Source of the DNA: Elusimicrobiota bacterium
GTDB lineage: Bacteria; Elusimicrobiota; Elusimicrobia; F11
Reading direction: 5' to 3'
Assembly: GCA_046153645.1 (NCBI GenBank)
Contig: JBJXGI010000086.1
Span: 1-53,445 of the forward strand
DNA length: 53,445 nt
This document shows positions 39,032 to 51,662 of the stretch, in pieces (the first letter of the stretch is position 1; every line of letters begins with the position of its first letter). The position numbers and the translations under genes are program-made. Under the pieces are notes generated by a model, which saw only the letters and a list, made by a program, of their open reading frames with translations, did not search any database and was not told the origin of the DNA.

Positions 39032-39054
39032 ACACCCTATACCTTTTTTTTGAA

Positions 39055-39089
39055 AAGGGCTTTGCTGTTAAGACGGCAAGGCTTTTTTT
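39055..39089 (+). terminator. Intrinsic terminator after the giant-gene operon
   Basis: GGCTTTGCTGT-taag-ACGGCAAGGCT stem with G:U pairs, followed by a T run. Confidence 0.75.
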
Positions 39090-39112
39090 ATGTTCGAATA
39101 AACTTTTTTAGG

Positions 39113-39151
39113 TTGTTATGTCGAATCTGTTCATGTACACTTAGTTGTACA
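39113..39151 (+). promoter_or_regulatory. Toxin-antitoxin promoter/operator with paired TGTACA palindromes
   Basis: TTGTTA(39113)-N17-TACACT(39136); TGTACA at 39134-39139 and 39146-39151 (12-bp offset), overlapping the -10. Confidence 0.7.
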
Positions 39152-39163
39152 AAAGGGGGAATT

Positions 39164-39433
39164 ATGCAGCAAATGTCTATTTCTCAAGCGCGAAGTTTGT
39201 TAACAAAAATGCCGAATCTTTTTCGTAAAGATTCCGATCCGATAGAAGTTGCTAATAGGGGTGTTCCTGTTTTGGCTATATTGCCTTGGGTGTTGTATGA
39301 ATCTATGGAGGAAACATTGGCGATTGTTTCTGACGAAAAATTGATGAGAAAAATAAAAAAAAGTTTGCGTCAGGTTAAACTAGGGAAAACTGTTTCTTGG
39401 GAAACCGTAAAGAAAAACCTTAAATTAAAATGA
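39164..39433 (+). CDS. Phd/YefM-family antitoxin
   Basis: ATG 39164 after AAGGGGGA; MSISQARSLL..PIEVANRGVPVLAILPW..YESMEETLAI is the Phd/YefM pattern; ATGA overlap with the toxin. Confidence 0.85.
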   Translation: MQQMSISQARSLLTKMPNLFRKDSDPIEVANRGVPVLAILPWVLYESMEETLAIVSDEKLMRKIKKSLRQVKLGKTVSWETVKKNLKLK

Positions 39434-39744
39434 CCTATTCGATTCGACTATCAATAGCTGCACAAGCCATGCTTGTGGAAATTTCTGATCGTCGTATTCG
39501 TCAGAAAATTGCCGATAAAATAAATCAATTAAAGTTAAATCCTGAAATGCAGGGAAAACCTCTTTCGGGAGAATTAAGTCAATATCGAAGTATTCGCGCT
39601 GCCGCACAACGATACCGGATCATATATCAGGTTATTCGAGGACAAGTTGTTGTTCTTGTCATTGCCATTGGGATTAGAAAAGATCAAGATCGGAGTGATA
39701 TTTATCAAAGGGTCAAAAAGTTAATTCGCTTAAAGTTACTTTGA
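39430..39744 (+). CDS. RelE/ParE-family type II toxin
   Basis: YSIRLS..LKLNPEMQGKPLSGELSQYRSIR..RYRIIYQV..VVVLVIAIGIR; basic, 104 aa; coupled to the antitoxin. Confidence 0.88.
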   Translation: MTYSIRLSIAAQAMLVEISDRRIRQKIADKINQLKLNPEMQGKPLSGELSQYRSIRAAAQRYRIIYQVIRGQVVVLVIAIGIRKDQDRSDIYQRVKKLIRLKLL

Positions 39745-39856: not shown

Positions 39857-42800
39857 GTGAATAAAGCGAAATTCTTTCGACGTATTTCTCTCCTTCTTTT
39901 GCCCTGTTATCTTTCTACCCAGGTCTTTTTTTTGCATGCCGCAGAATCGAGTCTTTGGGAAGATCGACGTAAAGCCCTCCATACAACTCAGAGTCCTCAA
40001 TCAAATAAACAGTTCGCCTCACTGCCTTCTTCTTTGACTCATTTTGGAGTTGAAGAATTTAGAAATTTAACAGAAAGTCTCCCAAGTCTTAAGAAAACTT
40101 TTGAAACATCAGTCAGTGTTTCGCAGCCAAATTTGAAGAAAATACCACCTGTTTATACAGAATATTTAAATGAATTATCCCGCAATTTTGGAATGGTAAA
40201 AGAAGTATATGTGCCTCGTCAAAAATCAAAGACACCCTTAATCGTCCTCCTTCAAGACGTGCATTTAAACTTTGAAGCTCAAAACAATTTGGCTCAAATG
40301 TTGATTGCCCTTAACCAAAAAGCACAAAAAAAACTTGAGACTTTAGTTGTTGGCGTTGAGGGCGCTTTTGGGCCCTTTGATTTCAAAAGATACAGAGCTT
40401 TAAATAATTTAGATCTTCAAAAAAAATTAGCTGATTTCTTTTTACAAGAGAACAGAATTGCCGCCCCAAGTTATTTGGGGTTAACGGCACCTGTTGTTTC
40501 ATTTCAAATGGAAGGAATTGATGATAAAGACAGCTACGAAAAAAATGTGGAGGCCTACCTCTCCTCACGAAGGAAAAAAGAGTCTCTTCTTATTGAACTC
40601 AATAAAACGAAAGCAGAACTGAATAATGAAAAAATAAAAGAATTCGGAAAAGATCTTTTTGCTCATGAGGCACAAAAAACCGCTTATGCAGAAGGGAAGT
40701 TGAGTTTTGGAGATTACATTCAATATTTAAGCGCATTAAATGAAAAATTGAGCAGAAGTGAAGATTCTTTGGATCAAGATTTAACACTGGAGCAGTTCTT
40801 GGTCGCCTATTCAATGGAGAAAAACCTTTCATTGTCTTTGGTTGAAAAAGAGCGATCAGAAATTTTAAAAATACTGATTCCGCAACTTTCCAAGTCAGAG
40901 GTGGATGAGCTTTTGGCGCTGAGTTTAGGTCATCGAATGGGACAAATTAGTTTCGCTGATTATTATCGCCATATTAAAAACATGATATTGAAGAATGGTA
41001 TTGCTCTTTCTAGGTACACCTCTTTTGATAAATATATTCAATATGTGTTGCTCTGTGAAAGTTTGAACGCGGAAAAATTGTTTTCCGCACTTGATGAACT
41101 TGAGACAAAGTTATCCCAAAAGTTATCTCTTGATGATGGTGATCGGCGCCTTATTCACAAGTCAGATTGGGTTAATTTAACGTTTAAGCTGCTTGATTTT
41201 TCTTTAACCCCTCAGGAGTGGGAGAGATATAAAAAATTGCGTGAGCCCTCACCCTCCCCTCTCCCGCAAAGCGGGAGAGGGTTAGGGAGAGGGAATGAAA
41301 TAACTTCCTTTGAATCTTTCTATATTCAAGCGGATATTCGTTCAGAAAAGATGGTGGAAAATCTTTTAATGGCGGTTCCTAGTAGAGAAAAAAATCCAGG
41401 AACCAGGAACCAGGAGCCAGAAACGTCTTCCGCTGCCATTTCCGCTCTTGTCGTTGGTGGTTTCCACACGCCTCACATCATGAATCTCTTAAAAAAGAAA
41501 GGTATTCCCTTCGCTCTAGTTCAACCTGTTCTGACAAAAATTGACGAATCGACTGGATCAGCTTATTTAAGTGTTTTTCACAGAGAAAAAACGCCGTTAG
41601 ATGAGTTGTTTAAAGGGGAGAAGCTTTTCATGGCTCCAAAGGAATTAGCGCTTGGGAACTCTGTGGGGAACCCAGTGACAGGGGCGGCACTCCTTGCGGC
41701 TGGAGTGGTTTCTCAATTTCTAAACTCTTTGCCGGTGAAGCCGGATACGGGTTTAAGTGTCAGTGCGCAAAATGAGAATGAATTTGTCGTAAGAAATAAT
41801 AATACCGGTCAAGATTTGGTGGTTGTGCGAGTTAGTAATACCCCTGATCAACCTGGGGAAGGCGAGTTTAAAATTTCACTCCCCGGAAATCCCAATCTTT
41901 ATTTAAGAGCAGTGGTTTCAGGGGGAAACTTAAGTCGTTGGGGAAAAACTCTTTTATCGCTTGCTACAAAAAATGGAAATCGCCGACTCAAAGCGCTTAT
42001 AGGAATAAACCGCTCATTTACAGAAGTCTTTAAAAGTATTTATCGAGGGCCTTTGGGTTTTTTTAATGATCACCCCGAAAGAAGTGTTAGTCAAGCTTTC
42101 GGTATTCTGGGAATGTGGGTCGCGATGGGGTTTGCTTTTGTTGATGTATCTCTTTACAGTCCTCTTTTGGCTCTTATTTATAACATTCTTGCCCATTTAA
42201 CTTACACTTTTTTGGCTGTTTTATTTGGATTACCTTTGTTATCGATTCCTCCAGCTCCTGGTAATGGTCAATTTTCAGTGACAAATTTTACAATTCCAAT
42301 AGCGTCAAATTTTTTACCTGCTTTTAACGAGTTAAGGGGTAATGTAAAAGATGGAAAAATTGCTGTTTATGAAGGAATTACAGAGATTGATAAAAATAGC
42401 GGTGCTCTTGTCCCATTTGTGGATATTGAAAATGACAGCAGTGGAACCCAATTTATAATTATCCGATATAAAAACAACGTTTATGTTTTGAGAAATAAAA
42501 ACCTGAGTGTTGTTAAATCAGAAAATTTATTTATACAAACAGGTAATTTTCCGGAATTAACGAATCGCTGGAGTCAAATAAATAGATCTCAAGCGCCTCT
42601 AAACATGAAAATGAATGTGGCCGCTCAGTTACTAAATGTGTTTTTTATTCGAGAACAAAATCTGCTTGCTCCAACAAATCCAAACTTAAAACCTGACTTA
42701 ATTGAGGCGTTGTTAACGTTTTATCAAGACATCGGTCTTATAGGATCTTTTGACGGAAGTCCTTATGATTTTTCACTCAACCTTTCTTGGGTTCCCGGAT

Positions 42801-45800
42801 ATGATCGACGTACTGAAAAACCGGTTTTTAACCAAGTGTTTTCAAAAGAAGGAATTTTATTAAAAGCAAATATTATGTTTTTAGATTCTCCCGCGCCGCA
42901 ATCACCACCGGTAGCACCAGTTGTTTCCGCAAAACCTCAAACTCCACCGACTCAATTAACTTTTTTAAGAGCGGACGGCTCCATTAATAGCATACCAACA
43001 GTTCAAGCTCTAGTTATGGCGCAATACAATATTTTAATGAATATTGTTGCTCCAAAAGTAAGCGAAGTTAGAAATTGGGCTAATGCGAGTAAACAGTCAT
43101 TAGAGAATTTGTTAGGCCTAAAAAAAACACTTCTTTTTATTTTGAAACAAAATGAAGAAAGTCCGTGGTTATGGCGGATAGACAAAAGTAAGTTAGAAGA
43201 GTATTTGAGTTTTACTCGAGGTGCAATTGGGACTCGTGCTTCTAAAGAATTAACAGAATATATCGATTTTTCTGATGGTCTAGAGAATGATTTTATTTCT
43301 GTTGAAGCTCACCGCCAAAAAATAAAACGAATTCTTCGGCTTATTGAATTTCATCAGAACATTGGTGATGGAAATGAAAAATTAGGACTCTTGGAAGAAC
43401 GGGTGGATTGGAAGGCAGAACTTACGGAAGTTGAAGCGAGGTTATTAAGATTTTATAGTAAACAGAAATTTGTTGTTGACGTGAGAGGGATTCCTTATTT
43501 AGCCAGTGATATGGAAACACCAGACCCTCGAGCCACAGTGAGAATGCCCACCATCAGAAAATTGGATGAGATTTTAGATGCTGCTTATCAGCATTTTTAT
43601 TCTCCGTATAAACCCAAGTTAACAACACCTTCAACTGAATATGCGGGGAAAGTCATTTTTCAATCATTAGCGGTGTTAGGAAGTTTGGTTTGGATTGTTT
43701 CGATGTTTTTAACCCAAGAGTTTTACGTTTATCACATGATTGGAATATTCGCGATTATCTTATTCGCCATGCCACCCTTAGGCCTCATCGCCATCACCAT
43801 CGCGCCTTGGTGGGAACTACGCCAAACCATGCGCGACTTTAAAATATATTTAAAATCCCAAACAGAATCATTAACGGATCAAGAAAAAATTCTCTTAAAT
43901 AAGTTTTTATTGGAGCATAATCTGGACTCAGTGAAGGCCGCGTTACTAGGCAAGCGGTTGGGTCAATTTAGAAAAGCGTCTTTATGGATATACCAAAACA
44001 CCGGTTCATTTTATCTGGTTGCATTTACCCAAGTATTGGTTCACTTATGGCTTAATTTAAAAGCCCTGTTGAGCGATCGTATTTATTTAACCCAAAGGAA
44101 TTTATATTTGGGATGGTTCATCGGTTTTTTCTCCTTTGTGTTAAGCTTCTTTGGCGGCAATAAGAGGACAGAAGTAGTCCGGAATGAAACAGTTGATGAT
44201 GATGAAGTTCCTATTGGAAGAGAAGAGTTAGATCATGTACGTGGGACATTGAGACTTCCACCGCCGCATCATCAGAAAATTTTTGGAAAAACTAAAATTA
44301 CTTCTTTTGAAACGGGAGAGGCTGCATTAGATTATTTTTTAAAAATAATGGATGAAGGTCTTCTTCCGAATAAGGATACAGATGATGAGATAGCGCTGAT
44401 TCATAAGGAAGTTTTTCATTTATTGTTTGGAGAAGATAAAAATTATGATCTTCAGGCATCAAAAAATGACCCTCGACTTTTTGGGTTGTGGTTTAAAATA
44501 ATTGGAGTGATTCAGAATGATCGCTACGCGCAACCAGTCCCATTGCATTGGCTGAATCATTCAATTAGAGATCAGGTGTCTTCTTTATTGGTTGAAAAAG
44601 TAGTGCAAATATCTGGAATATTTGATAACGCTATTTTTCGCGATGCCTTTGATTCTTTTTCATCAGATCTTCAAGGGAAAATTGCGTTAGTGAAGAGTTT
44701 TATTGTTGGAATTGAAACAGCGGCTATTTTAAAAGAAAAACCTATTTTAGATTTCCTTGAAACTATTCCACTGAACATTCTTTTTTTAGATGAAAATAGC
44801 CAGTGGTACCCTTCTGCTCGTCCTTTGGTTGGATTTTTACTTTCTGAAATCTTGCTTGAAAATAAAAATATAGAAACCTATTTGTCTCGACTAGGCACAG
44901 TCTTTAATCAGTTAAACTCACCAGAAAAAGCCACTCTTCTATGGTTTATTGGGAAAATAAAAAGTCAAAATGAATTAAGAAAAAGACTTTTATGGTCAGA
45001 GTACCTACGAAGATTTGTGCTATCGGGTAAAAAAGAAAATTTGACTGCTGAGGAAAAGAGTTCTCTTGAGGATAAAATTAATGAGGTAAAATTCGATCTC
45101 GAAAATTTATCCAAATACGATCTGGTTTTTGAGGTAGGGCGTTTTGATAATTATGGCGATTTAATGCAGGCCATTGACATGGCAAAATTTGCTTCTAAAA
45201 ATAAGTACGGTAGAAAAGTTATTGTTGTTTTAGATCAGTCTCCAGGAGGAGCCAAACATAAGAAGGAACCTTCTCACTCTGAAAAAGCCGCCAGAGTTCT
45301 TGGCTTAAGTGATTCCATAACGGATCCTATTGAAATAGATGGGGTTATTTTTGTTGGCGCTAAGGAATTAAATAAAGCTATTTTGGGGCCTTTTTTTAGC
45401 GTGTTGGTTCCTGGTCATCCCATGTTCCACTCCGAAGCTTTTTATAAGAACAGAAAAGGGTTTATCCAGTTGGGAGAAAGTGCTCGTGGTCCGAATCCAA
45501 GAAATGTTACGGGAGATGGGGGCGTTTATCCTTACGCGGATGGTTTGTATCTTCAGCCAGGCGTGCTCTCTGATGAAATTGGTTTACCTTTAATGCAAGA
45601 GGAAATTCCAGGACTTGATAGAAAACATGAAAAGTCTGAATTTCAAGAAGAATTAAAGCTAACAGAAGCGCAACTTAATAAAAAATGGGTTTTTATTTAC
45701 ATGAGTGCGGTTCAAAAAGAAGATAAAAACAAAGTTAAAGAATTGATTGTGAAAATGTTGGATAAAGGTTGGCTAATTCTTTTAAAGTCTGATGATTATG

Positions 45801-48800
45801 ATTTTCAAGAGATCTCTCGCTTGGTTTTAAACTCAAAGGATGTAATTTCAGTTCCATCTTCTAATAGATCGTTTTTAACGGGACTTATGACAGCCACTGA
45901 ATTAAACCTGGTCACTGGAACCATGAGTTATTCAGAAGGAATTCGAATTTCTGCGAAATTTGGTGTTCCATTTTTCTATATGCGACCAGGTTGGTTGGCA
46001 AATACAGTACCTGGTTTGAAGTCATTTGTTGATCAATCTTCTTTGAATCCTGAAGATAAAATAAATCTTCAGAATTTTTTTGATAATCCATCTCTTTTTC
46101 TTGAAAAGGAAGATTTGATCCGCCGTGCCTTACAATTGCTTTCAAAAAGATTGGTGCAAGAAAAAGACACGGTCAATATTCTTTTTCCATTGATCGAGGC
46201 CGGTTTGTGGGCTGTTTCAAATTGGGGAGAAACAGACTCTCGTTTTTTAAACGGAACAAGGCGCCCAGTACTTGATGCTGAAATTATCAGAAGAAAAGAA
46301 CTTTCTTCTTCCGCCCTTGGTGGTCTCATGGCTTGGTTACGCGAATTGGTGCTTAAAATTTTTCCGAAAATGTCAGTGTCATTTTATAACCGTTGGGTGG
46401 CATTTTGGTTGGAGAACACATTGTCTATTTCGATCGCTTCTGCGGTGGCTTATCCTATTTATTCTTATACCCAAAATCTCGATTTGGCCCTGCTTGTCGG
46501 TAGTTTTTTAGCACTTGTGGTTTTTCTCGCGCTACATTTTATTGATTTATTACTTCCCAAAGAAAAACAGGGTCGTGGGGAAAATTATGTTATTGCATTT
46601 ATTATTTCAATATTAACGGGTCTTTCTGGAACAATAACTCTTGCCATTACTTTTAATGTCGTTTACTCACTCATTGCTGTTGCCGTTGTTTTCTTTACTT
46701 CTCACTTTATCGCTAACCAGTATTTTAAAGAGTTTTCGGTTTTAGAAGATATTATGAATGGGAGTAGTTTTAATGTCATTTTTGGAAAAAATACTAAGGT
46801 GGATTTATGGCGTTCAGATGTGAGTGGTCAATCGAAAACGGATTCTTTTAAGGTAATCAAGAATGATAACAGTGTTTTCATTCAGGAAAATAATTCTAAT
46901 CCTATTCAATTAACAGTAGATATGCCGGCTGGATATTTTTTTGATGGATTTCAACTTAAACTAAATCGAAATGGAAGCCTCACTATAATAAAAATGTATG
47001 AAGAAAATAATTTGCGGGTACAAGTTCTAAATGCCAGAGGTTGGAGCATTAAAAGATCAGATTATCTTGAAGAGGGAGATCCACAAAATGAATTGCCCCT
47101 TCATTATAATGATTTGCCGAATTTTTCGGATCATTGGAATAACATGTTGAACAGTTTTGGGTCATATGCAAACAATGACATGATAATATCCCAATTGAAC
47201 CAAATTATTATATGTGCCAATCAGAATCGCGCTGCTCTTCCCACCGCCAACCCCTTCTTAAGATTTGAAATAGAAAGAAATCTTCGATATTTACATGAAG
47301 AGGTATTGAAACTGCTTGAAAAAGAAACTGTAATCACAAATGACGTTTTGATTGAGAAAATAGGTTCAACAACTATTAAGAGATATTCTCTAGGAGAGAA
47401 TTCTCCTCTGAAACTCTCACTTTATAGTCTTCCAGTTGAAATAAATAAAGGTTTTGTTTATATCGAAATAAAAAGAGGGGACCGGTACTTCCCTTTGCCG
47501 TTTAATCTTTCAGATGGAAAAGATTTTGAACTTGTTTTGAAAAATGTAAATGACGTTAAAATTAATGTTCAAGATGATCTTGTTGAAGTCATTCCGGAGG
47601 GAGAAAGTAACCAAGCTGAGGCCTTTATGTTTAGGTTGCCCCCTATTAATAAAGCAATGTCCGATGAGCAGTTGAAGTTAGAGCTCGAAAAAATTTTCAA
47701 GGATGGAATTGATATTGAAAAAGATAATCTTCCTCCTTCATCTTCTTTTGGGAAAACTAATAAGAAGGAATTGGCGAACTATACCATCCCACATTCCTTA
47801 GTTGCTTCAGGTATTTTATTTAAACCCCAGACTTTTATTTCTGCTTCTGATCAAGAAAAGGAAATTCGTTATGAAATAGACACAATGAATATATTTCTGG
47901 AAATTACAGTAGATAAGAATGATAAGTTACTTTCTCTCGCTCTTCAAAAAAGAGATTCTGATAATTCAGCGCTTGAAAATATAGAATTTCAACTAAAAGC
48001 AACTCGTGGAAATATCCTCACTGATACGGCTGGTTTTATTCCAAATTCCCGAGATAAAATCAATTTAACGAAATTCCAAAATGTGGAAGTAAAACTTTTT
48101 GATGATGTTTTGTCGATTCGTCTGTTCGGTCCCGTTGTTGATTCTGAACAAGATGTTTACAGTTTCACGGGCTCCAATAAAAATAGTGCATTAACGTTAA
48201 CTTATGGCGGGAAAAAGTCTGAAAAAGCTTCCGCTAAATTGTCACCTAAACAACAGTTAGAAAATGAAGCGAAAAACATGGTTTCTTTTACGCAAGCATT
48301 AAACACCAATGATGAAGGAAAAATGGTTGAAAGCTTGATGAATGTACAGTTGTTGGGAGTGGGAGAAAAAACTCAAGACGTGTCAGTGGGGCGTTGGAAT
48401 GAGCTTCTATCAGATGCGGAATTTATAGAGATCTTAAAAATAGAAATGGCAAAAATTGTTCCCGCTCAAGTGGCTGGGAAGCCTCTTGTTTTGGGTCTTT
48501 TTGATGAAACTCCTTATTCTGATAGTCAACTCTTAGCAGCCGCCATCAAAGCGCGCTTACAGGGCCAGCCATTAAGAATTATTTTAAGTGATGCCCGATA
48601 TAACGGAAATAAACAGTTCTTCGATCAATTAAAGAAAACAGCTCAATTAGATATTTATAGCGGAGAGGATTTAACACAAATCGTTCAATCCAAAAAAGTG
48701 ATATCGAGTATGGTTCAAAGTAAACTCAAAATAGATCTCAATAGTGTTTCATTGGCCCTTCCAGAAGGATTTGTTGTTGATATTGAGGGGTATTCACCCA

Positions 48801-48889
48801 TTCGCCTTCGAGATTTCATGCCTCCGCTGACTAGAATAAACACAGAGGCTATTTTGGTTATTTATCGAGCTATCCAAGTAGCAGCGTAA
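39857..48889 (+). CDS. Giant (3010 aa) mosaic membrane protein of unknown function
   Basis: Open ORF; N-terminal signal-like segment; N-domain with QDVH / VEG / VVGGFH motifs; three hydrophobic clusters; GT-B-like region (DNYGD..LVTGTMSYSE..VPFFY). GTG start uncertain. Confidence 0.8.
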   Translation: MNKAKFFRRISLLLLPCYLSTQVFFLHAAESSLWEDRRKALHTTQSPQSNKQFASLPSSLTHFGVEEFRNLTESLPSLKKTFETSVSVSQPNLKKIPPVYTEYLNELSRNFGMVKEVYVPRQKSKTPLIVLLQDVHLNFEAQNNLAQMLIALNQKAQKKLETLVVGVEGAFGPFDFKRYRALNNLDLQKKLADFFLQENRIAAPSYLGLTAPVVSFQMEGIDDKDSYEKNVEAYLSSRRKKESLLIELNKTKAELNNEKIKEFGKDLFAHEAQKTAYAEGKLSFGDYIQYLSALNEKLSRSEDSLDQDLTLEQFLVAYSMEKNLSLSLVEKERSEILKILIPQLSKSEVDELLALSLGHRMGQISFADYYRHIKNMILKNGIALSRYTSFDKYIQYVLLCESLNAEKLFSALDELETKLSQKLSLDDGDRRLIHKSDWVNLTFKLLDFSLTPQEWERYKKLREPSPSPLPQSGRGLGRGNEITSFESFYIQADIRSEKMVENLLMAVPSREKNPGTRNQEPETSSAAISALVVGGFHTPHIMNLLKKKGIPFALVQPVLTKIDESTGSAYLSVFHREKTPLDELFKGEKLFMAPKELALGNSVGNPVTGAALLAAGVVSQFLNSLPVKPDTGLSVSAQNENEFVVRNNNTGQDLVVVRVSNTPDQPGEGEFKISLPGNPNLYLRAVVSGGNLSRWGKTLLSLATKNGNRRLKALIGINRSFTEVFKSIYRGPLGFFNDHPERSVSQAFGILGMWVAMGFAFVDVSLYSPLLALIYNILAHLTYTFLAVLFGLPLLSIPPAPGNGQFSVTNFTIPIASNFLPAFNELRGNVKDGKIAVYEGITEIDKNSGALVPFVDIENDSSGTQFIIIRYKNNVYVLRNKNLSVVKSENLFIQTGNFPELTNRWSQINRSQAPLNMKMNVAAQLLNVFFIREQNLLAPTNPNLKPDLIEALLTFYQDIGLIGSFDGSPYDFSLNLSWVPGYDRRTEKPVFNQVFSKEGILLKANIMFLDSPAPQSPPVAPVVSAKPQTPPTQLTFLRADGSINSIPTVQALVMAQYNILMNIVAPKVSEVRNWANASKQSLENLLGLKKTLLFILKQNEESPWLWRIDKSKLEEYLSFTRGAIGTRASKELTEYIDFSDGLENDFISVEAHRQKIKRILRLIEFHQNIGDGNEKLGLLEERVDWKAELTEVEARLLRFYSKQKFVVDVRGIPYLASDMETPDPRATVRMPTIRKLDEILDAAYQHFYSPYKPKLTTPSTEYAGKVIFQSLAVLGSLVWIVSMFLTQEFYVYHMIGIFAIILFAMPPLGLIAITIAPWWELRQTMRDFKIYLKSQTESLTDQEKILLNKFLLEHNLDSVKAALLGKRLGQFRKASLWIYQNTGSFYLVAFTQVLVHLWLNLKALLSDRIYLTQRNLYLGWFIGFFSFVLSFFGGNKRTEVVRNETVDDDEVPIGREELDHVRGTLRLPPPHHQKIFGKTKITSFETGEAALDYFLKIMDEGLLPNKDTDDEIALIHKEVFHLLFGEDKNYDLQASKNDPRLFGLWFKIIGVIQNDRYAQPVPLHWLNHSIRDQVSSLLVEKVVQISGIFDNAIFRDAFDSFSSDLQGKIALVKSFIVGIETAAILKEKPILDFLETIPLNILFLDENSQWYPSARPLVGFLLSEILLENKNIETYLSRLGTVFNQLNSPEKATLLWFIGKIKSQNELRKRLLWSEYLRRFVLSGKKENLTAEEKSSLEDKINEVKFDLENLSKYDLVFEVGRFDNYGDLMQAIDMAKFASKNKYGRKVIVVLDQSPGGAKHKKEPSHSEKAARVLGLSDSITDPIEIDGVIFVGAKELNKAILGPFFSVLVPGHPMFHSEAFYKNRKGFIQLGESARGPNPRNVTGDGGVYPYADGLYLQPGVLSDEIGLPLMQEEIPGLDRKHEKSEFQEELKLTEAQLNKKWVFIYMSAVQKEDKNKVKELIVKMLDKGWLILLKSDDYDFQEISRLVLNSKDVISVPSSNRSFLTGLMTATELNLVTGTMSYSEGIRISAKFGVPFFYMRPGWLANTVPGLKSFVDQSSLNPEDKINLQNFFDNPSLFLEKEDLIRRALQLLSKRLVQEKDTVNILFPLIEAGLWAVSNWGETDSRFLNGTRRPVLDAEIIRRKELSSSALGGLMAWLRELVLKIFPKMSVSFYNRWVAFWLENTLSISIASAVAYPIYSYTQNLDLALLVGSFLALVVFLALHFIDLLLPKEKQGRGENYVIAFIISILTGLSGTITLAITFNVVYSLIAVAVVFFTSHFIANQYFKEFSVLEDIMNGSSFNVIFGKNTKVDLWRSDVSGQSKTDSFKVIKNDNSVFIQENNSNPIQLTVDMPAGYFFDGFQLKLNRNGSLTIIKMYEENNLRVQVLNARGWSIKRSDYLEEGDPQNELPLHYNDLPNFSDHWNNMLNSFGSYANNDMIISQLNQIIICANQNRAALPTANPFLRFEIERNLRYLHEEVLKLLEKETVITNDVLIEKIGSTTIKRYSLGENSPLKLSLYSLPVEINKGFVYIEIKRGDRYFPLPFNLSDGKDFELVLKNVNDVKINVQDDLVEVIPEGESNQAEAFMFRLPPINKAMSDEQLKLELEKIFKDGIDIEKDNLPPSSSFGKTNKKELANYTIPHSLVASGILFKPQTFISASDQEKEIRYEIDTMNIFLEITVDKNDKLLSLALQKRDSDNSALENIEFQLKATRGNILTDTAGFIPNSRDKINLTKFQNVEVKLFDDVLSIRLFGPVVDSEQDVYSFTGSNKNSALTLTYGGKKSEKASAKLSPKQQLENEAKNMVSFTQALNTNDEGKMVESLMNVQLLGVGEKTQDVSVGRWNELLSDAEFIEILKIEMAKIVPAQVAGKPLVLGLFDETPYSDSQLLAAAIKARLQGQPLRIILSDARYNGNKQFFDQLKKTAQLDIYSGEDLTQIVQSKKVISSMVQSKLKIDLNSVSLALPEGFVVDIEGYSPIRLRDFMPPLTRINTEAILVIYRAIQVAA
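41246..41293 (+). repeat. REP-like hairpin inside the 3010-aa ORF
   Basis: CCCTCTCCCGC-aaa-GCGGGAGAGGG perfect 11-bp stem (41257-41281) with C-rich and G-rich flanks; translated as PSPSPLPQSGRGLGRG. Confidence 0.8.
41394..41421 (+). repeat. Heptamer tandem repeat (AACCAGG-like x4) inside the ORF
   Basis: ATCCAGG AACCAGG AACCAGG AGCCAGA. Confidence 0.75.
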
Positions 48890-48939
48890 TTTTTAGATTA
48901 TATACATGGCTATTCCATCATAATCAATACAAAATTAAT

Positions 48940-49017
48940 AATCCCTCCCTGTTTGGTCGCTTTAGCGACCGAACGGGGAGGTTGGTGGGGGGGATTAATG
49001 GGTTTTTCCTTATAAAA
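48940..49017. repeat. Left inverted repeat with hairpin, flanking the DUF559 gene
   Basis: AATCCCTCCC..GGTCGCT-tt-AGCGACC..CGGGGAGGTTGGTG7ATTAATGGGTTTTTCCTTATAAAA; reverse complement of 49394-49452 apart from the hairpin loop, a 2-G indel and one substitution. Confidence 0.85.
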
Positions 49018-49333
49018 ATTTCAATATGGACTCAAGGACACTTTCTGTATTAACGAGAACATGATTATTCCAGAATCTTAAAACTTTGTAGCCTTTTGAT
49101 TGTAAAAACTCAGTTCTATGCGCATCATAATTTTCTTGAAGCGCATGCTGCCCTCCATCAACTTCAATAATTAACTTTTTTTCTATGCAAACAAAATCAA
49201 CAATATAAGGCTTAATAACATGCTGCCTGCGAAACTTATAATTATTGAGTTGATTGTTTCTCAAGTAATACCAAAGTAACTTCTCAGCTTTAGATGGATT
49301 GCTTCGTAATGATCGCGCGTAGTTGTAAATCAT
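49010..49333 (-). CDS. DUF559 (Vsr-like PD-(D/E)xK) endonuclease-domain protein
   Basis: ARSLRSNPSKAEKLLWYYLR..KFRRQH..YIVDFVC..LIIEVDGGQH..YDAHRTEFL..GYKVLRFWN is the DUF559 signature. Confidence 0.92.
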   Translation of the reverse strand: MIYNYARSLRSNPSKAEKLLWYYLRNNQLNNYKFRRQHVIKPYIVDFVCIEKKLIIEVDGGQHALQENYDAHRTEFLQSKGYKVLRFWNNHVLVNTESVLESILKFL

Positions 49334-49393
49334 ATTTCCTCACCGGATTAAGACATGAGGAGGGGATTTAGAGGGGAATTTAATTCTAAGATA

Positions 49394-49452
49394 TTTTATA
49401 AGGTAAAACCCATTAATCCCCCACCAACCTCCCCGCTTTGCGGGGAGGGATT
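49394..49452. repeat. Right inverted repeat with hairpin, flanking the DUF559 gene
   Basis: TTTTATAAGGTAAAACCCATTAATCCCCCACCAACCTCCCCGC-ttt-GCGGGGAGGGATT. Confidence 0.85.
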
Positions 49453-49685: not shown

Positions 49686-51662
49686 ATGAAAAATAATGAA
49701 CTTAAAAAAATGTGGGTTAAACTGGGAAGTGTCCTCACCATCATTTTCAGTTTCATTTCTTTGAGCTTGGCAGGTTCAGCCGGGACTGTTTCTAATAACT
49801 TCCTTAAAATTGGCCTGGGTGCCAGAGGATCTGCCATGGGAGAAGCCCAAGCCGCTGCTTCTGAAGACGTGACCGCCGCTTTTTGGAACCCCGCCGCGCT
49901 TTCCAACCTTCGATTTCAAGAAATCACTTTTATGCATCATGATATGGTTGAAGGTGTTCGCCTTCAACAAGTGCAAGTGGGGCTTCCACTCCAAAACAAC
50001 AAAGGAACCTTTTCTGCCGGCCTCAGCATGATGGATTTTGGATCTATCAATGGTTACAACGATGCGGGTCTCCCCACGGGTTCCGTTGAAGCTTCTGACC
50101 TTCTCCTTTCCGCTTCTTATGCTCGCGCCATTTCTAAAAAATCAAAATTAACGGGCGGATTTACTTTTAAATATCTCAATTCTAAGTTGGCCGGATATTC
50201 TGCTTCGGCTCCCATGCTCGACTTAGGCCTTCTTTTGCCCATTGAAACCGGACGAATGAAAGGCCTAAAGCTTTCTTTCGGAATGCGTAATGTAGGACCT
50301 TCTATTAAATACGATACGCAAAGTTCACAACTTCCTCGTCAGGTTGTTTTTGGAAGCGCTTTTTCCGCTTTAGGGGGAAATTTGAATATAGCCTTAGACG
50401 CTATTCAATCTGTCGATTCCAATCTTTATTTTGCAACAGGTCTTGAATATAGAGTGTTCGACATGCTCAATTTACGTTTGGGTTACAATGGACGCAGCAA
50501 TTTTGTCGGAAATGGCATTAGTTATGGAATGGGGCTTCGTTTCACACAATGGAATTTAGATTATGCGTTTGTTCCATTTGGTGATTTAGGTGCTACCAAT
50601 AGAATTAGTGTGGGTGTCCGTTTTGGTCGTGCTATCCAAATCAAAAATGCCGACGATCAAGTTGAATTCAATTACAATTTCGCTAAACGCCAATTGGCTT
50701 TAGGTAAAGGGGTGGAAGCTTATAGCACCTTATCTGATCTTCTCCTTATTGCTCCTTGGCATAAACCTTCCGTTGAACTCAAAGCCAAAATTCAAAAACA
50801 ATTCGACGAAATGGCGGTTTCTAAAAATAATGCCCGCATGGAAGCTGAAATTGCGGACAAATTCACTTTGGCTAAAGCTGCCTTTGACAGAGATGAGTTG
50901 GTTGAAGCTCGCAAAGGTTTTGAAACCATTCTTGCTCTTCAGTCAGAGCATGTTGGTTCTAAAGTTTATTTAGAAAGAATTCAAAATAGATATCAAAGCT
51001 TAGCCCATGAATCTTTCAAACAGGGAATGGACTACTACGCTGCGGCTGATTATGAAAAAGCCCAGATGTTCTTTGAGAAAACCCTCACAATTGATCCAAC
51101 CCACGCTGATGCCAAGGCCCAATTGGATAAAACAATCCAATTGATAGCTGATGTCACCAAGAGAGCCCGCGAGATGGAATTATTAGCCGGAGCGGGTGAA
51201 GCTTACAAAGAAGGCTTGGTGGCTTATCAGAAAAATGATCTCGAGAAGGCCTTGGCTAAATTTGAAGAAGTCAAAACCCAAATGCCTGAATATGAAGAAG
51301 TGAGCCGATATATAGAGTTAACCAAACAAACCTTGGCCGGCATTCTCTTCGAACAAGCCAAAGTAAATGTTGAAAACGGTCAGCTAGAAGAGGCTGTGAC
51401 CAAACTTAAAAGAGCCGATGAGTTAACCCCCAAAGCCAGCAATATCCAAACCGCTCTTGAAATGGCGAATAAAGACTTAGCCACCAAAAATGCGGAGTTG
51501 TCTAAGAAACTCTATAAAGATGGTTTAGAAGCTTACCTTGGTGGTCAAACCGATAAAGCCGAAAACCTTTGGAATAAAGCCCTTGAATTGGATGGCAATA
51601 ACGAGGAAGCTAAGAAGGCCATTGAAAAAGTTCAAGAAAAGAAGAAATTTGAAGGGAAATAA
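49686..51662 (+). CDS. PorV/PorQ-family outer-membrane beta-barrel fused to C-terminal TPR repeats
   Basis: Signal peptide; FLKIGLGARGSAMGEA..AAFWNPAAL PorV-type N-terminal motif; amphipathic strands ending LDYAFVPFGDLGATNRISVGVRF; TPR-like helices from about aa 325. Confidence 0.85.
   Translation: MKNNELKKMWVKLGSVLTIIFSFISLSLAGSAGTVSNNFLKIGLGARGSAMGEAQAAASEDVTAAFWNPAALSNLRFQEITFMHHDMVEGVRLQQVQVGLPLQNNKGTFSAGLSMMDFGSINGYNDAGLPTGSVEASDLLLSASYARAISKKSKLTGGFTFKYLNSKLAGYSASAPMLDLGLLLPIETGRMKGLKLSFGMRNVGPSIKYDTQSSQLPRQVVFGSAFSALGGNLNIALDAIQSVDSNLYFATGLEYRVFDMLNLRLGYNGRSNFVGNGISYGMGLRFTQWNLDYAFVPFGDLGATNRISVGVRFGRAIQIKNADDQVEFNYNFAKRQLALGKGVEAYSTLSDLLLIAPWHKPSVELKAKIQKQFDEMAVSKNNARMEAEIADKFTLAKAAFDRDELVEARKGFETILALQSEHVGSKVYLERIQNRYQSLAHESFKQGMDYYAAADYEKAQMFFEKTLTIDPTHADAKAQLDKTIQLIADVTKRAREMELLAGAGEAYKEGLVAYQKNDLEKALAKFEEVKTQMPEYEEVSRYIELTKQTLAGILFEQAKVNVENGQLEEAVTKLKRADELTPKASNIQTALEMANKDLATKNAELSKKLYKDGLEAYLGGQTDKAENLWNKALELDGNNEEAKKAIEKVQEKKKFEGK

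Follow-up and report, generated by a model that had tools for sequence, protein, structure and literature searches.

Whether giant bacterial proteins persist whole or are cut up is posed as an open question in the literature, where their cleavage sites are called unknown. This question is raised by a 3,010-aa protein encoded on the forward strand of an Elusimicrobiota contig (positions 39,857–48,889 of the window, the whole stretch of 53,445 nucleotides that was analysed), which a sequence-only reading had suggested to be a self-processing polyprotein punctuated by three CPBP/CAAX-protease-like membrane modules. Because one of these modules is likely a CPBP relative that has all four cutting residues, the protein would likely cut itself into membrane-anchored pieces.

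Results

The protein is laid out as head, module, cargo, module, cargo, module, cargo and tail, and belongs to a paralogous family of 48 ORFs in the same genome, defined by a common TIKI/ChaN-fold head. A Pfam search returned no family covering the whole protein and no PrsW or toxin match within it. DNA contigs of four public runs cover parts of the ORF, none of them its full length, and no indel or joint is listed within it. Its N-terminus (39,857–39,943, forward strand) appears signal-peptide-like when compared with those of its paralogues: a basic and then a hydrophobic stretch, followed by a conserved Trp-x-x-Arg-Arg-like stretch. At the other end, cargo 3 and the family tail (46,739–48,886, forward strand) finish in alanine, as do 30/32 closed family ORFs versus 75/968 other ORFs; family searches with cargo 3 gave no match. 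The ORF is flanked by a Phd/ParE-type pair and a DUF559 gene (Pfam), and no immunity-like gene evidently adjoins it.

All nine motifs on which the earlier proposal was built lie in frame in the ORF, at the coordinates it gave. They yield the quartets E723, H739, H780 and T784 (module 1), E1320, H1354, H1396 and N1400 (module 2), and E2186, H2227, H2283 and N2287 (module 3). The idea that these are copies of one divergent repeated unit did not survive: the modules are of three different types, phmmer finds no match among them, and the spacing from E to the first H is 16, 34 and 41 residues, respectively. The statement that each hydrophobic cluster carries the motif set needs an exception for module 2, whose E and FxxxH sit not within its two hydrophobic helices but in a polar segment that follows them. 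At the family level, the pattern FxxxH-x(25-75)-HxxxN is above chance, with 21 occurrences in those parts of the 48 paralogous ORFs that follow the head (81,596 residues in all), compared with a mean of 3.3 (maximum 7) over 50 shuffles; of the 21 occurrences, several lie in hydrophilic stretches and are probably chance matches.

Module 3 (46,319–46,717, forward strand), which we call type A, has a Gly-Gly pair (residues 2155–2156), an amphipathic helix and four membrane helices, with the quartet. The amphipathic helix and the four-helix fold are predicted (AlphaFold2, AF2, pLDDT 91.7). Neither module 3 nor any of 15 members of its family gives a Pfam Rce1-like (PF02517) match, direct hhalign comparison of the family with stand-alone CPBPs is weak (probability 2.8%), and Rce1 was not among the structures returned by fold searches. 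Modules of two paralogues do pass the Pfam Rce1-like (PF02517) cut-off. An HMM built from 12 modules that lie in long ORFs and are positive for PF02517 matched type A modules at E 8e-4 without iteration (best reversed decoy 0.09). Iterated profiles that started from such Pfam-positive Rce1-like domains alone, run against an enriched set of 2,229 sequences, reached module 3 itself, kept out of every model, at E 8.5e-5 in round 5 and then at 1e-20 (reversed decoys 0.003–0.5). Module 3 is, by this transitive profile homology, CPBP-derived; the same profile does not reach modules 1 and 2 (E above 30).

The single glutamate of the first motif, seen earlier as a departure from EExxxR, falls into place in the joint alignment with CPBPs, where one E column holds 114/128 rows and corresponds to the first E of EExxxR; by alignment register, E2186 is that catalytic position. 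In MrtX/MmRce1, this glutamate and the FxxxH-type histidine are described as activating water (PMC11980579). The residue after it in type A modules is N in 44/66 and E in 7/66, with no R among the common residues at +5; module 3 here has E-N and lacks the full EExxxR motif. The remaining quartet is well kept. Among 62 non-seed homologues the four positions are conserved in 59 (E), 61 (H), 56 (H) and 57 (N), the misses being mostly truncations, and among 165 further matches in 163, 160, 164 and 159. The catalytic positions are thus retained at 96–99% across matches of about 20–30% identity, and the conservation in homologues that the sequence-only reading hinged on holds for module 3.

Like CPBP/Rce1-like proteins (PF02517; MmRce1, MrtX, MroQ), module 3 has a predicted four-helix core with ordered E, FxxxH and HxxxN, and the median E to H spacing of its family (42) is similar to theirs (35). 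In contrast to them, only the core is present here, built into a giant chain and recurring along it, with the second E and R mostly lost and a Gly-Gly/amphipathic leader added. Conservation of type A begins abruptly at this Gly-Gly and stops at the Asn of HxxxN. The two glycines are present in 81% and 89% of the 104 type A modules aligned there, mostly 26–32 residues before the E. The pair is typical of type A only; type B and other embedded modules begin differently. Its role could be no more than capping of the amphipathic helix. No conserved site was found on the downstream side of the modules, which would leave cargo tethered.

The Lys/Arg skew of the module 3 family places the active-site face on the cargo side. 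This is the inverse of stand-alone CPBPs, which in related genomes show the outward pattern; the active site of MroQ is also reported to face outward (bioRxiv 10.64898/2026.09.29.755489). Given this reversal, the module 3 site likely faces the cytoplasm, and the module is likely a stripped-down, inward-facing CAAX/Rce1 relative with all four putative catalytic residues. A simple all-cytoplasmic topology fits poorly with the signal-like N-terminus, as comparison of the paralogues reveals no conserved return helix between it and the first module.

Module 1 (41,915–42,244, forward strand) is a short membrane module of a second type, type B, in which, unlike in CPBP/Rce1-like proteins, only about 14 residues separate E from H. 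A type B HMM from which module 1 had been left out recovered it at E 2.7e-5 (best reversed decoy 2.3). In that family, E, H and a G are kept in 40, 42 and 43 of 43 members, and a downstream HxxxN occurs in 35/43 compared with 1.2 in shuffled sequences. As noted before, module 1 lacks the N: T784 replaces the Asn found in most relatives, and by this substitution module 1 may be weakened. Comparison of type B with the joint CPBP set gave an hhalign probability of 11.6%, on HxxxN only. Module 2 (43,643–44,158, forward strand), with its two hydrophobic helices, quartet and further helix, is an orphan. It is weakly type-B-like (E 0.4 against the type B HMM) and resembles paralogue modules by eye, and it may be degenerate. 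Because neither 151 genomes nor a protein-database region search contained a homologue, module 2 cannot be shown to exceed chance. A conserved family is thus matched strongly by module 3 and also by module 1, but not by module 2.

Cargo 1 (42,254–43,636, forward strand) is soluble and without family assignment: it had no Pfam or NCBIfam match and no relative among the ORFs compared. The second half (45,140–46,270) of cargo 2 (44,177–46,270, forward strand) is a probable EarP-like glycosyltransferase, a lead drawn from ESM Atlas feature matches of 0.92–0.96 that include an EarP cluster, and from a DNYGD-type motif at 45,143 that we take to be indicative of EarP. Sigma-70 domains, helicases and methyltransferases also occur as cargo. 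The expectation that intervening domains are shuffled was borne out, as 174 upstream flanks fell into 150 clusters and 149 downstream flanks into 128. Our models matched a module in only 21/42 long paralogues. In the same positions as CPBP-type modules, paralogues also carry 14 HExxH motifs in hydrophobic context (0.07 in shuffled sequences), one of these modules exceeding the Pfam M50 cut-off.

The head (40,163–41,665, forward strand) has the parallel beta-sheet core of the TIKI/ChaN/EreA superfamily, and its fold matches include ChaN, HopBA1, BcR135, EreC and RRSP. It differs from them in a large helical insert and in its role as the constant element that heads a polymorphic family; the head of this protein is below Pfam detection. 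Its putative catalytic residues D134, H136, E168, R495 and H537 are kept in 170, 170, 170, 168 and 168 of 170 sequences. This acid-x-His, Glu, Arg, His set (2 His/2 acid plus Arg) resembles the 2His/2Glu plus Arg set given for RRSP (PMC6254334) by motif order, not by residue-level superposition. The head is a second candidate processing enzyme, overlooked in the earlier reading.

Discussion

We favor, at a little short of an even chance, a self-processing membrane polyprotein cut close to the conserved Gly-Gly that precedes the Glu by about 30 residues. Under this reading module 3 would be a predicted minimal CPBP-type glutamic protease in the inner membrane, facing the cytoplasm, and modules 1 and 2 possibly would be as well. 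Such a protease would cut its own chain in cis just upstream, near the Gly-Gly, and every cargo domain would end up with a membrane anchor of its own.

A less probable but serious reading is that the modules are CPBP-derived and do not cut their own chain, acting instead as anchors with a polar pocket for lipid, metal or peptide, or as proteases in trans, so that the giant stays intact. The loss of the second E and R, the degenerate modules 1 and 2 and the lack of a conserved downstream site agree with it, and a non-catalytic CPBP protein, CflP, is on record; yet four catalytic positions persist despite such low identity, and unrelated HExxH-type protease motifs in the same positions are hard to explain for mere anchors. 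It is very improbable that only module 3 is real, with the motifs of modules 1 and 2 being chance or relic in ordinary membrane segments. Module 2 indeed has no homologue and the module 1 match is weak, but module 1 belongs to a family with its own conserved residues and module 2 looks like paralogue modules.

The processing protease could instead be the invariant head, with the membrane modules as anchors or recognition sites. MARTX and PVC-type toxins have a single processing domain, and the head defines the family, matches the superfamily in fold and keeps its active-site set in RRSP order. We consider this unlikely, because it leaves unexplained why each module keeps a protease-like quartet, the superfamily also contains esterases and haem binders, and the head would be on the wrong side if the signal-like peptide exports it. 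Somewhat less likely still, the chain could be exported as an effector polyprotein and insert into a prey or host membrane, its modules releasing or anchoring cargo in the target cytoplasm. The signal-like N-terminus, the placing of head and active-site face on one side with no conserved return helix, the polymorphic cargo (including the probable EarP-like glycosyltransferase) and the conserved Ala-ending tail would suit such an effector. Strongly hydrophobic helices that obey the positive-inside rule would normally stop in the inner membrane of the producer, and there is no evident immunity-like gene beside the ORF.

The precedent for such an effector is the PrsW-fused polymorphic toxins, in which a CPBP-related membrane peptidase is likewise joined to variable cargo and autoproteolytic release has been proposed (Zhang et al. 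2012, PMC3482391). In those fusions a single eight-helix PrsW at the N-terminus is followed by a single toxin, whereas here several minimal modules of different classes lie among many cargo domains behind a TIKI-fold head; the combination of N-terminal eight-helix PrsW, C-terminal toxin and adjacent immunity gene is not found. Omnitrophota giant proteins and Archaeovorins are also giant mosaic membrane proteins with enzyme cargo and proposed self-cleavage (West-Roberts 2023; 2026 complete-genome preprint). Those accounts invoke C39 and S8 peptidases, and the protein here, which carries a TIKI-fold head, is far smaller than theirs. The main text of West-Roberts 2023 does not mention CAAX, CPBP, M50 or intramembrane, nor does that of the 2026 preprint mention CAAX or polyprotein, and our literature searches found no description of such a self-processing membrane polyprotein.

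More broadly, and more tentatively than for this one protein, we suggest that the Elusimicrobiota giants may be virus-like polyproteins. In each genome, dozens of paralogues would intersperse cytoplasmic enzymes and regulators, in shuffled combinations, with mini intramembrane proteases. These protease units would be interchangeable, being inverted four-helix CPBP cores, a truncated type B or M50-like. Each would cut in cis at the leader on its N-terminal side, and a single reading frame would thereby yield several membrane-anchored proteins. Module 3, of roughly 130 residues, would then be a very small cytoplasm-facing CPBP protease. Since the module is small, its putative catalytic residues are named and a candidate cut site is at hand, a construct of about 250 residues would make the question testable in E. 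coli. Self-processing, if true, would provide a rule for dividing unannotated giants into functional units, and would offer the case of a CPBP protease pared down to its core and inverted in the membrane.

Results

The open reading frame (ORF) at window positions 39857-48889 encodes a 3,010-residue polyprotein in which three membrane modules alternate with soluble stretches, here termed cargo; all nine motifs of the sequence-only reading lie in frame where it had placed them. A Pfam search returned no family for the polyprotein. One study contributed four runs whose DNA contigs match stretches of the ORF; none spans it whole, and no indel or joint is listed within it. The modules had been regarded as three repeated, divergent units. 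Modules 1, 2 and 3 gave no phmmer matches to one another and differ in spacing from the glutamate to the first histidine (16, 34 and 41 residues, respectively); thus, they are not copies of one unit.

The first 600 residues of the polyprotein, which include the head domain, define a family of 48 ORFs in the same genome. A head search of the genome collection returned 78 loci, all from Elusimicrobiota, Elusimicrobia or Ca. Obscuribacterium, which we take to be an Elusimicrobiota genus. Downstream of the head, the 48-ORF family contains 21 occurrences of FxxxH-x(25-75)-HxxxN, versus 3.3 in shuffles. Pfam Rce1-like (PF02517) domains above cut-off directly follow the head in two paralogues, and giant ORFs of relatives hold further PF02517 matches. 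A second protease class is represented in paralogues by one M50 domain above cut-off and by 14 HExxH motifs that follow hydrophobic helices, against 0.07 expected; by our own pattern, an M50-like Asp motif comes after three of these. Module models matched 21 of 42 long paralogues, a count to be read knowing that the models miss some visible modules.

A 10,189-aa paralogue (G000:C86:11315-41881, minus strand) has eight repeated membrane modules with HExxH and, a few residues later, Glu; two similar modules occur in contigs C91 and C29, and these modules were left without a family assignment. Another paralogue (L038; G000:C31:7197-14609, minus strand) alternates four EE-type CPBP-like modules with sigma-70 domains. 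A 13,760-aa frame in a second genome (L197; G023:C15:4000-23999) has numerous short membrane segments and contains two CPBP domains that Pfam recognizes; the charge pattern is that of stand-alone proteins in one and the inverted one in the other.

Module 3 (46319-46717; E2186, H2227, H2283, N2287) belongs to a family we call type A. A single-sequence search found matches in 14 of 41 genomes, its own included, and an alignment of module 3 with 14 of the 18 non-self matches shows no variation at E, F, H, H and N, with mean column identity at 31%. In 29 of 121 genomes of the class, the profile found 81 matches, every one in a frame of at least 540 aa. In 62 non-seed homologues the two histidines, in order, are kept in 61 and 56 cases and N in 57; E is kept in 59, the other 3 having Asp. 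Truncations account for most of the misses. Against 1.84 billion representatives the profile matched 199 proteins, and the best 150 of these supplied 165 new full-length matches with E in 163, F in 160, H in 160, H in 164 and N in 159. The E/H/H/N quartet is thus kept in the module 3 family, as the sequence-only reading would have it. The AlphaFold2 prediction (pLDDT 91.7) has an amphipathic helix plus four long helices.

Module 3 had also been called CPBP-like. In a direct Pfam test 15 members of its family gave no Rce1-like match, hhalign against stand-alone CPBPs gave a probability of 2.8%, and Rce1 was not among the matches of three fold searches with this helical bundle, a fold type that is hard to discriminate. 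A transitive test was seeded with an HMM from 12 PF02517-positive modules of long ORFs, and module 3 of the window was left out of every CPBP model. Without iteration, the HMM matched type-A modules at E 8e-4 (best reversed decoy, 0.09). Upon iteration it gathered stand-alone CPBPs as well as type-A modules; module 3 was matched in round 5 at E 8.5e-5 and, once the search had converged, at 1e-20. These E-values are optimistic, since only 2,229 sequences were searched and such loci were over-represented among them. Each residue of the quartet falls in a single column of the 128-row joint alignment (E in 114 rows, H in 126 and 124, N in 110), and the column with E corresponds to the first E of EExxxR. 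In MrtX and MmRce1 this E and the FxxxH-type His are reported to bridge the catalytic water, with HxxxN forming the oxyanion hole (PMC11980579). Most type-A modules lack the second E and the R, and module 3 therefore fails the literal EExxxR definition although it keeps the catalytic quartet. The CPBP-like assignment of module 3 is thus supported by transitive profile homology.

Type-A modules start abruptly at a Gly-Gly and end at the Asn, with no conservation upstream. The first glycine occurs in 81% and the second in 89% of the 104 modules that align at this point; over the full 165 the counts are 85 and 93. The pair usually precedes E by 26-32 residues, and in module 3 it precedes E2186 by 30. 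Flanking sequences are unrelated, with 150 clusters among 174 upstream flanks and 128 among 149 downstream ones, so that the intervening domains are indeed shuffled. Cargo in 20 long ORFs of the genome includes sigma-70 regions, SNF2 and other helicases, AAA domains and methyltransferases, with no match at 1e-6 in 13; in 14 other proteins it includes a kinase, WD40 repeats, a deaminase and methyltransferases, with no match in 10. The second half of cargo 2 in the window resembles EarP-like glycosyltransferases, which we treat as a lead; family searches assigned no identity to the remaining cargo. The last residue of the family tail is Ala in 30 of 32 closed ORFs, versus 75 of 968 others. At these C-termini (window 48830-48889 and paralogues) a hydrophobic helix precedes the Ala, a candidate targeting or degradation signal.

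In 21 stand-alone CPBPs, Lys and Arg are on average abundant in the stretch linking E and the first H (mean count 2.8) and ahead of the last H (1.6), and scarce ahead of E (0.5), past the first H (0.7) and past N (0.4). The corresponding means in 66 type-A modules are 0.7 and 0.1, then 1.8, 2.1 and 2.4, a reversed pattern that 33 other embedded modules share. By the positive-inside rule, the putative active site of embedded modules is predicted to face the cytoplasm, on the cargo side. The stand-alone bacterial member MroQ is reported to be outward-facing (bioRxiv 10.64898/2026.09.29.755489), consistent with the pattern of our stand-alone control group.

Directly upstream of the polyprotein gene lies a Phd/YefM antitoxin and ParE-like toxin pair (39050-39744), and within 12501-39031 an 8,730-aa FG-GAP/FN3 surface protein is followed by a 108-aa ORF consisting only of a T9SS-like C-terminal sorting domain. 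Downstream, long inverted repeats (e.g., 48989-49017 and 49394-49422, 97%) enclose a DUF559 gene on the minus strand (49010-49333), probably forming a small mobile element (48939-49452), of which the runs contain a diverged copy; a PorV-like barrel-TPR gene occupies 49686-51662.

Discussion

We tentatively favor a reading in which the intact modules cut the polyprotein in cis. That the motifs of modules 1 and 2 arose by chance seems very improbable. Module 1 (41915-42244) matches a shorter family, type B (leave-out E 2.7e-5; decoy 2.3), which conserves E in 40, H in 42 and G in 43 of 43 members, with E and H a median of 14 residues apart; HxxxN follows in 35 of 43, versus 1.2 when shuffled. 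The window's module 1 has Thr in place of this Asn, and motif order suggests that type B may be akin to CPBP. Module 2 (43643-44158) has the full quartet; sequence searches found no homologues, and it reached only E 0.4 against the type B HMM. Modules that do not cut, or that act in trans, are a less probable alternative to cutting in cis.

Processing by the head itself is unlikely. Its fold is that of a TIKI/ChaN/EreA domain, and D, H, E, R and H are kept in 168-170 of 170 sequences, in the order of the RRSP catalytic set (PMC6254334). Within it, an in-frame palindromic insertion (41248-41295; arms 41257-41267 and 41271-41281) codes for a Pro/Gly-rich loop and looks like a dispersed REP-like repeat, since contigs of other sequences in the four runs match only that stretch. 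Somewhat less likely still is export of the chain as an effector that acts in a target membrane. A signal-like peptide precedes the head, and hydropathy revealed no conserved membrane helix between head and first module; the alternatives are that the peptide leaves the head unexported and that the chain is routed unusually.

Self-cleavage of giant proteins via C39 and S8 domains has been proposed (bioRxiv 10.1101/2023.11.21.568195), PrsW-fused toxins have been described (PMC3482391), and work on the lipocone mentions MPTase and papain-like peptidases in Omnitrophota giants (PMC12419801). The literature searched (few subscription papers, and preprints in their main text) yielded no description of repeated CPBP-like modules or of a TIKI head in giant proteins. 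In the cis-cutting reading, the chain would be inserted in the inner membrane and each intact module would cut near its own leader, where we infer both catalysis and the cut site. The products would be a free head and module-plus-cargo pieces anchored at the cytoplasmic face.
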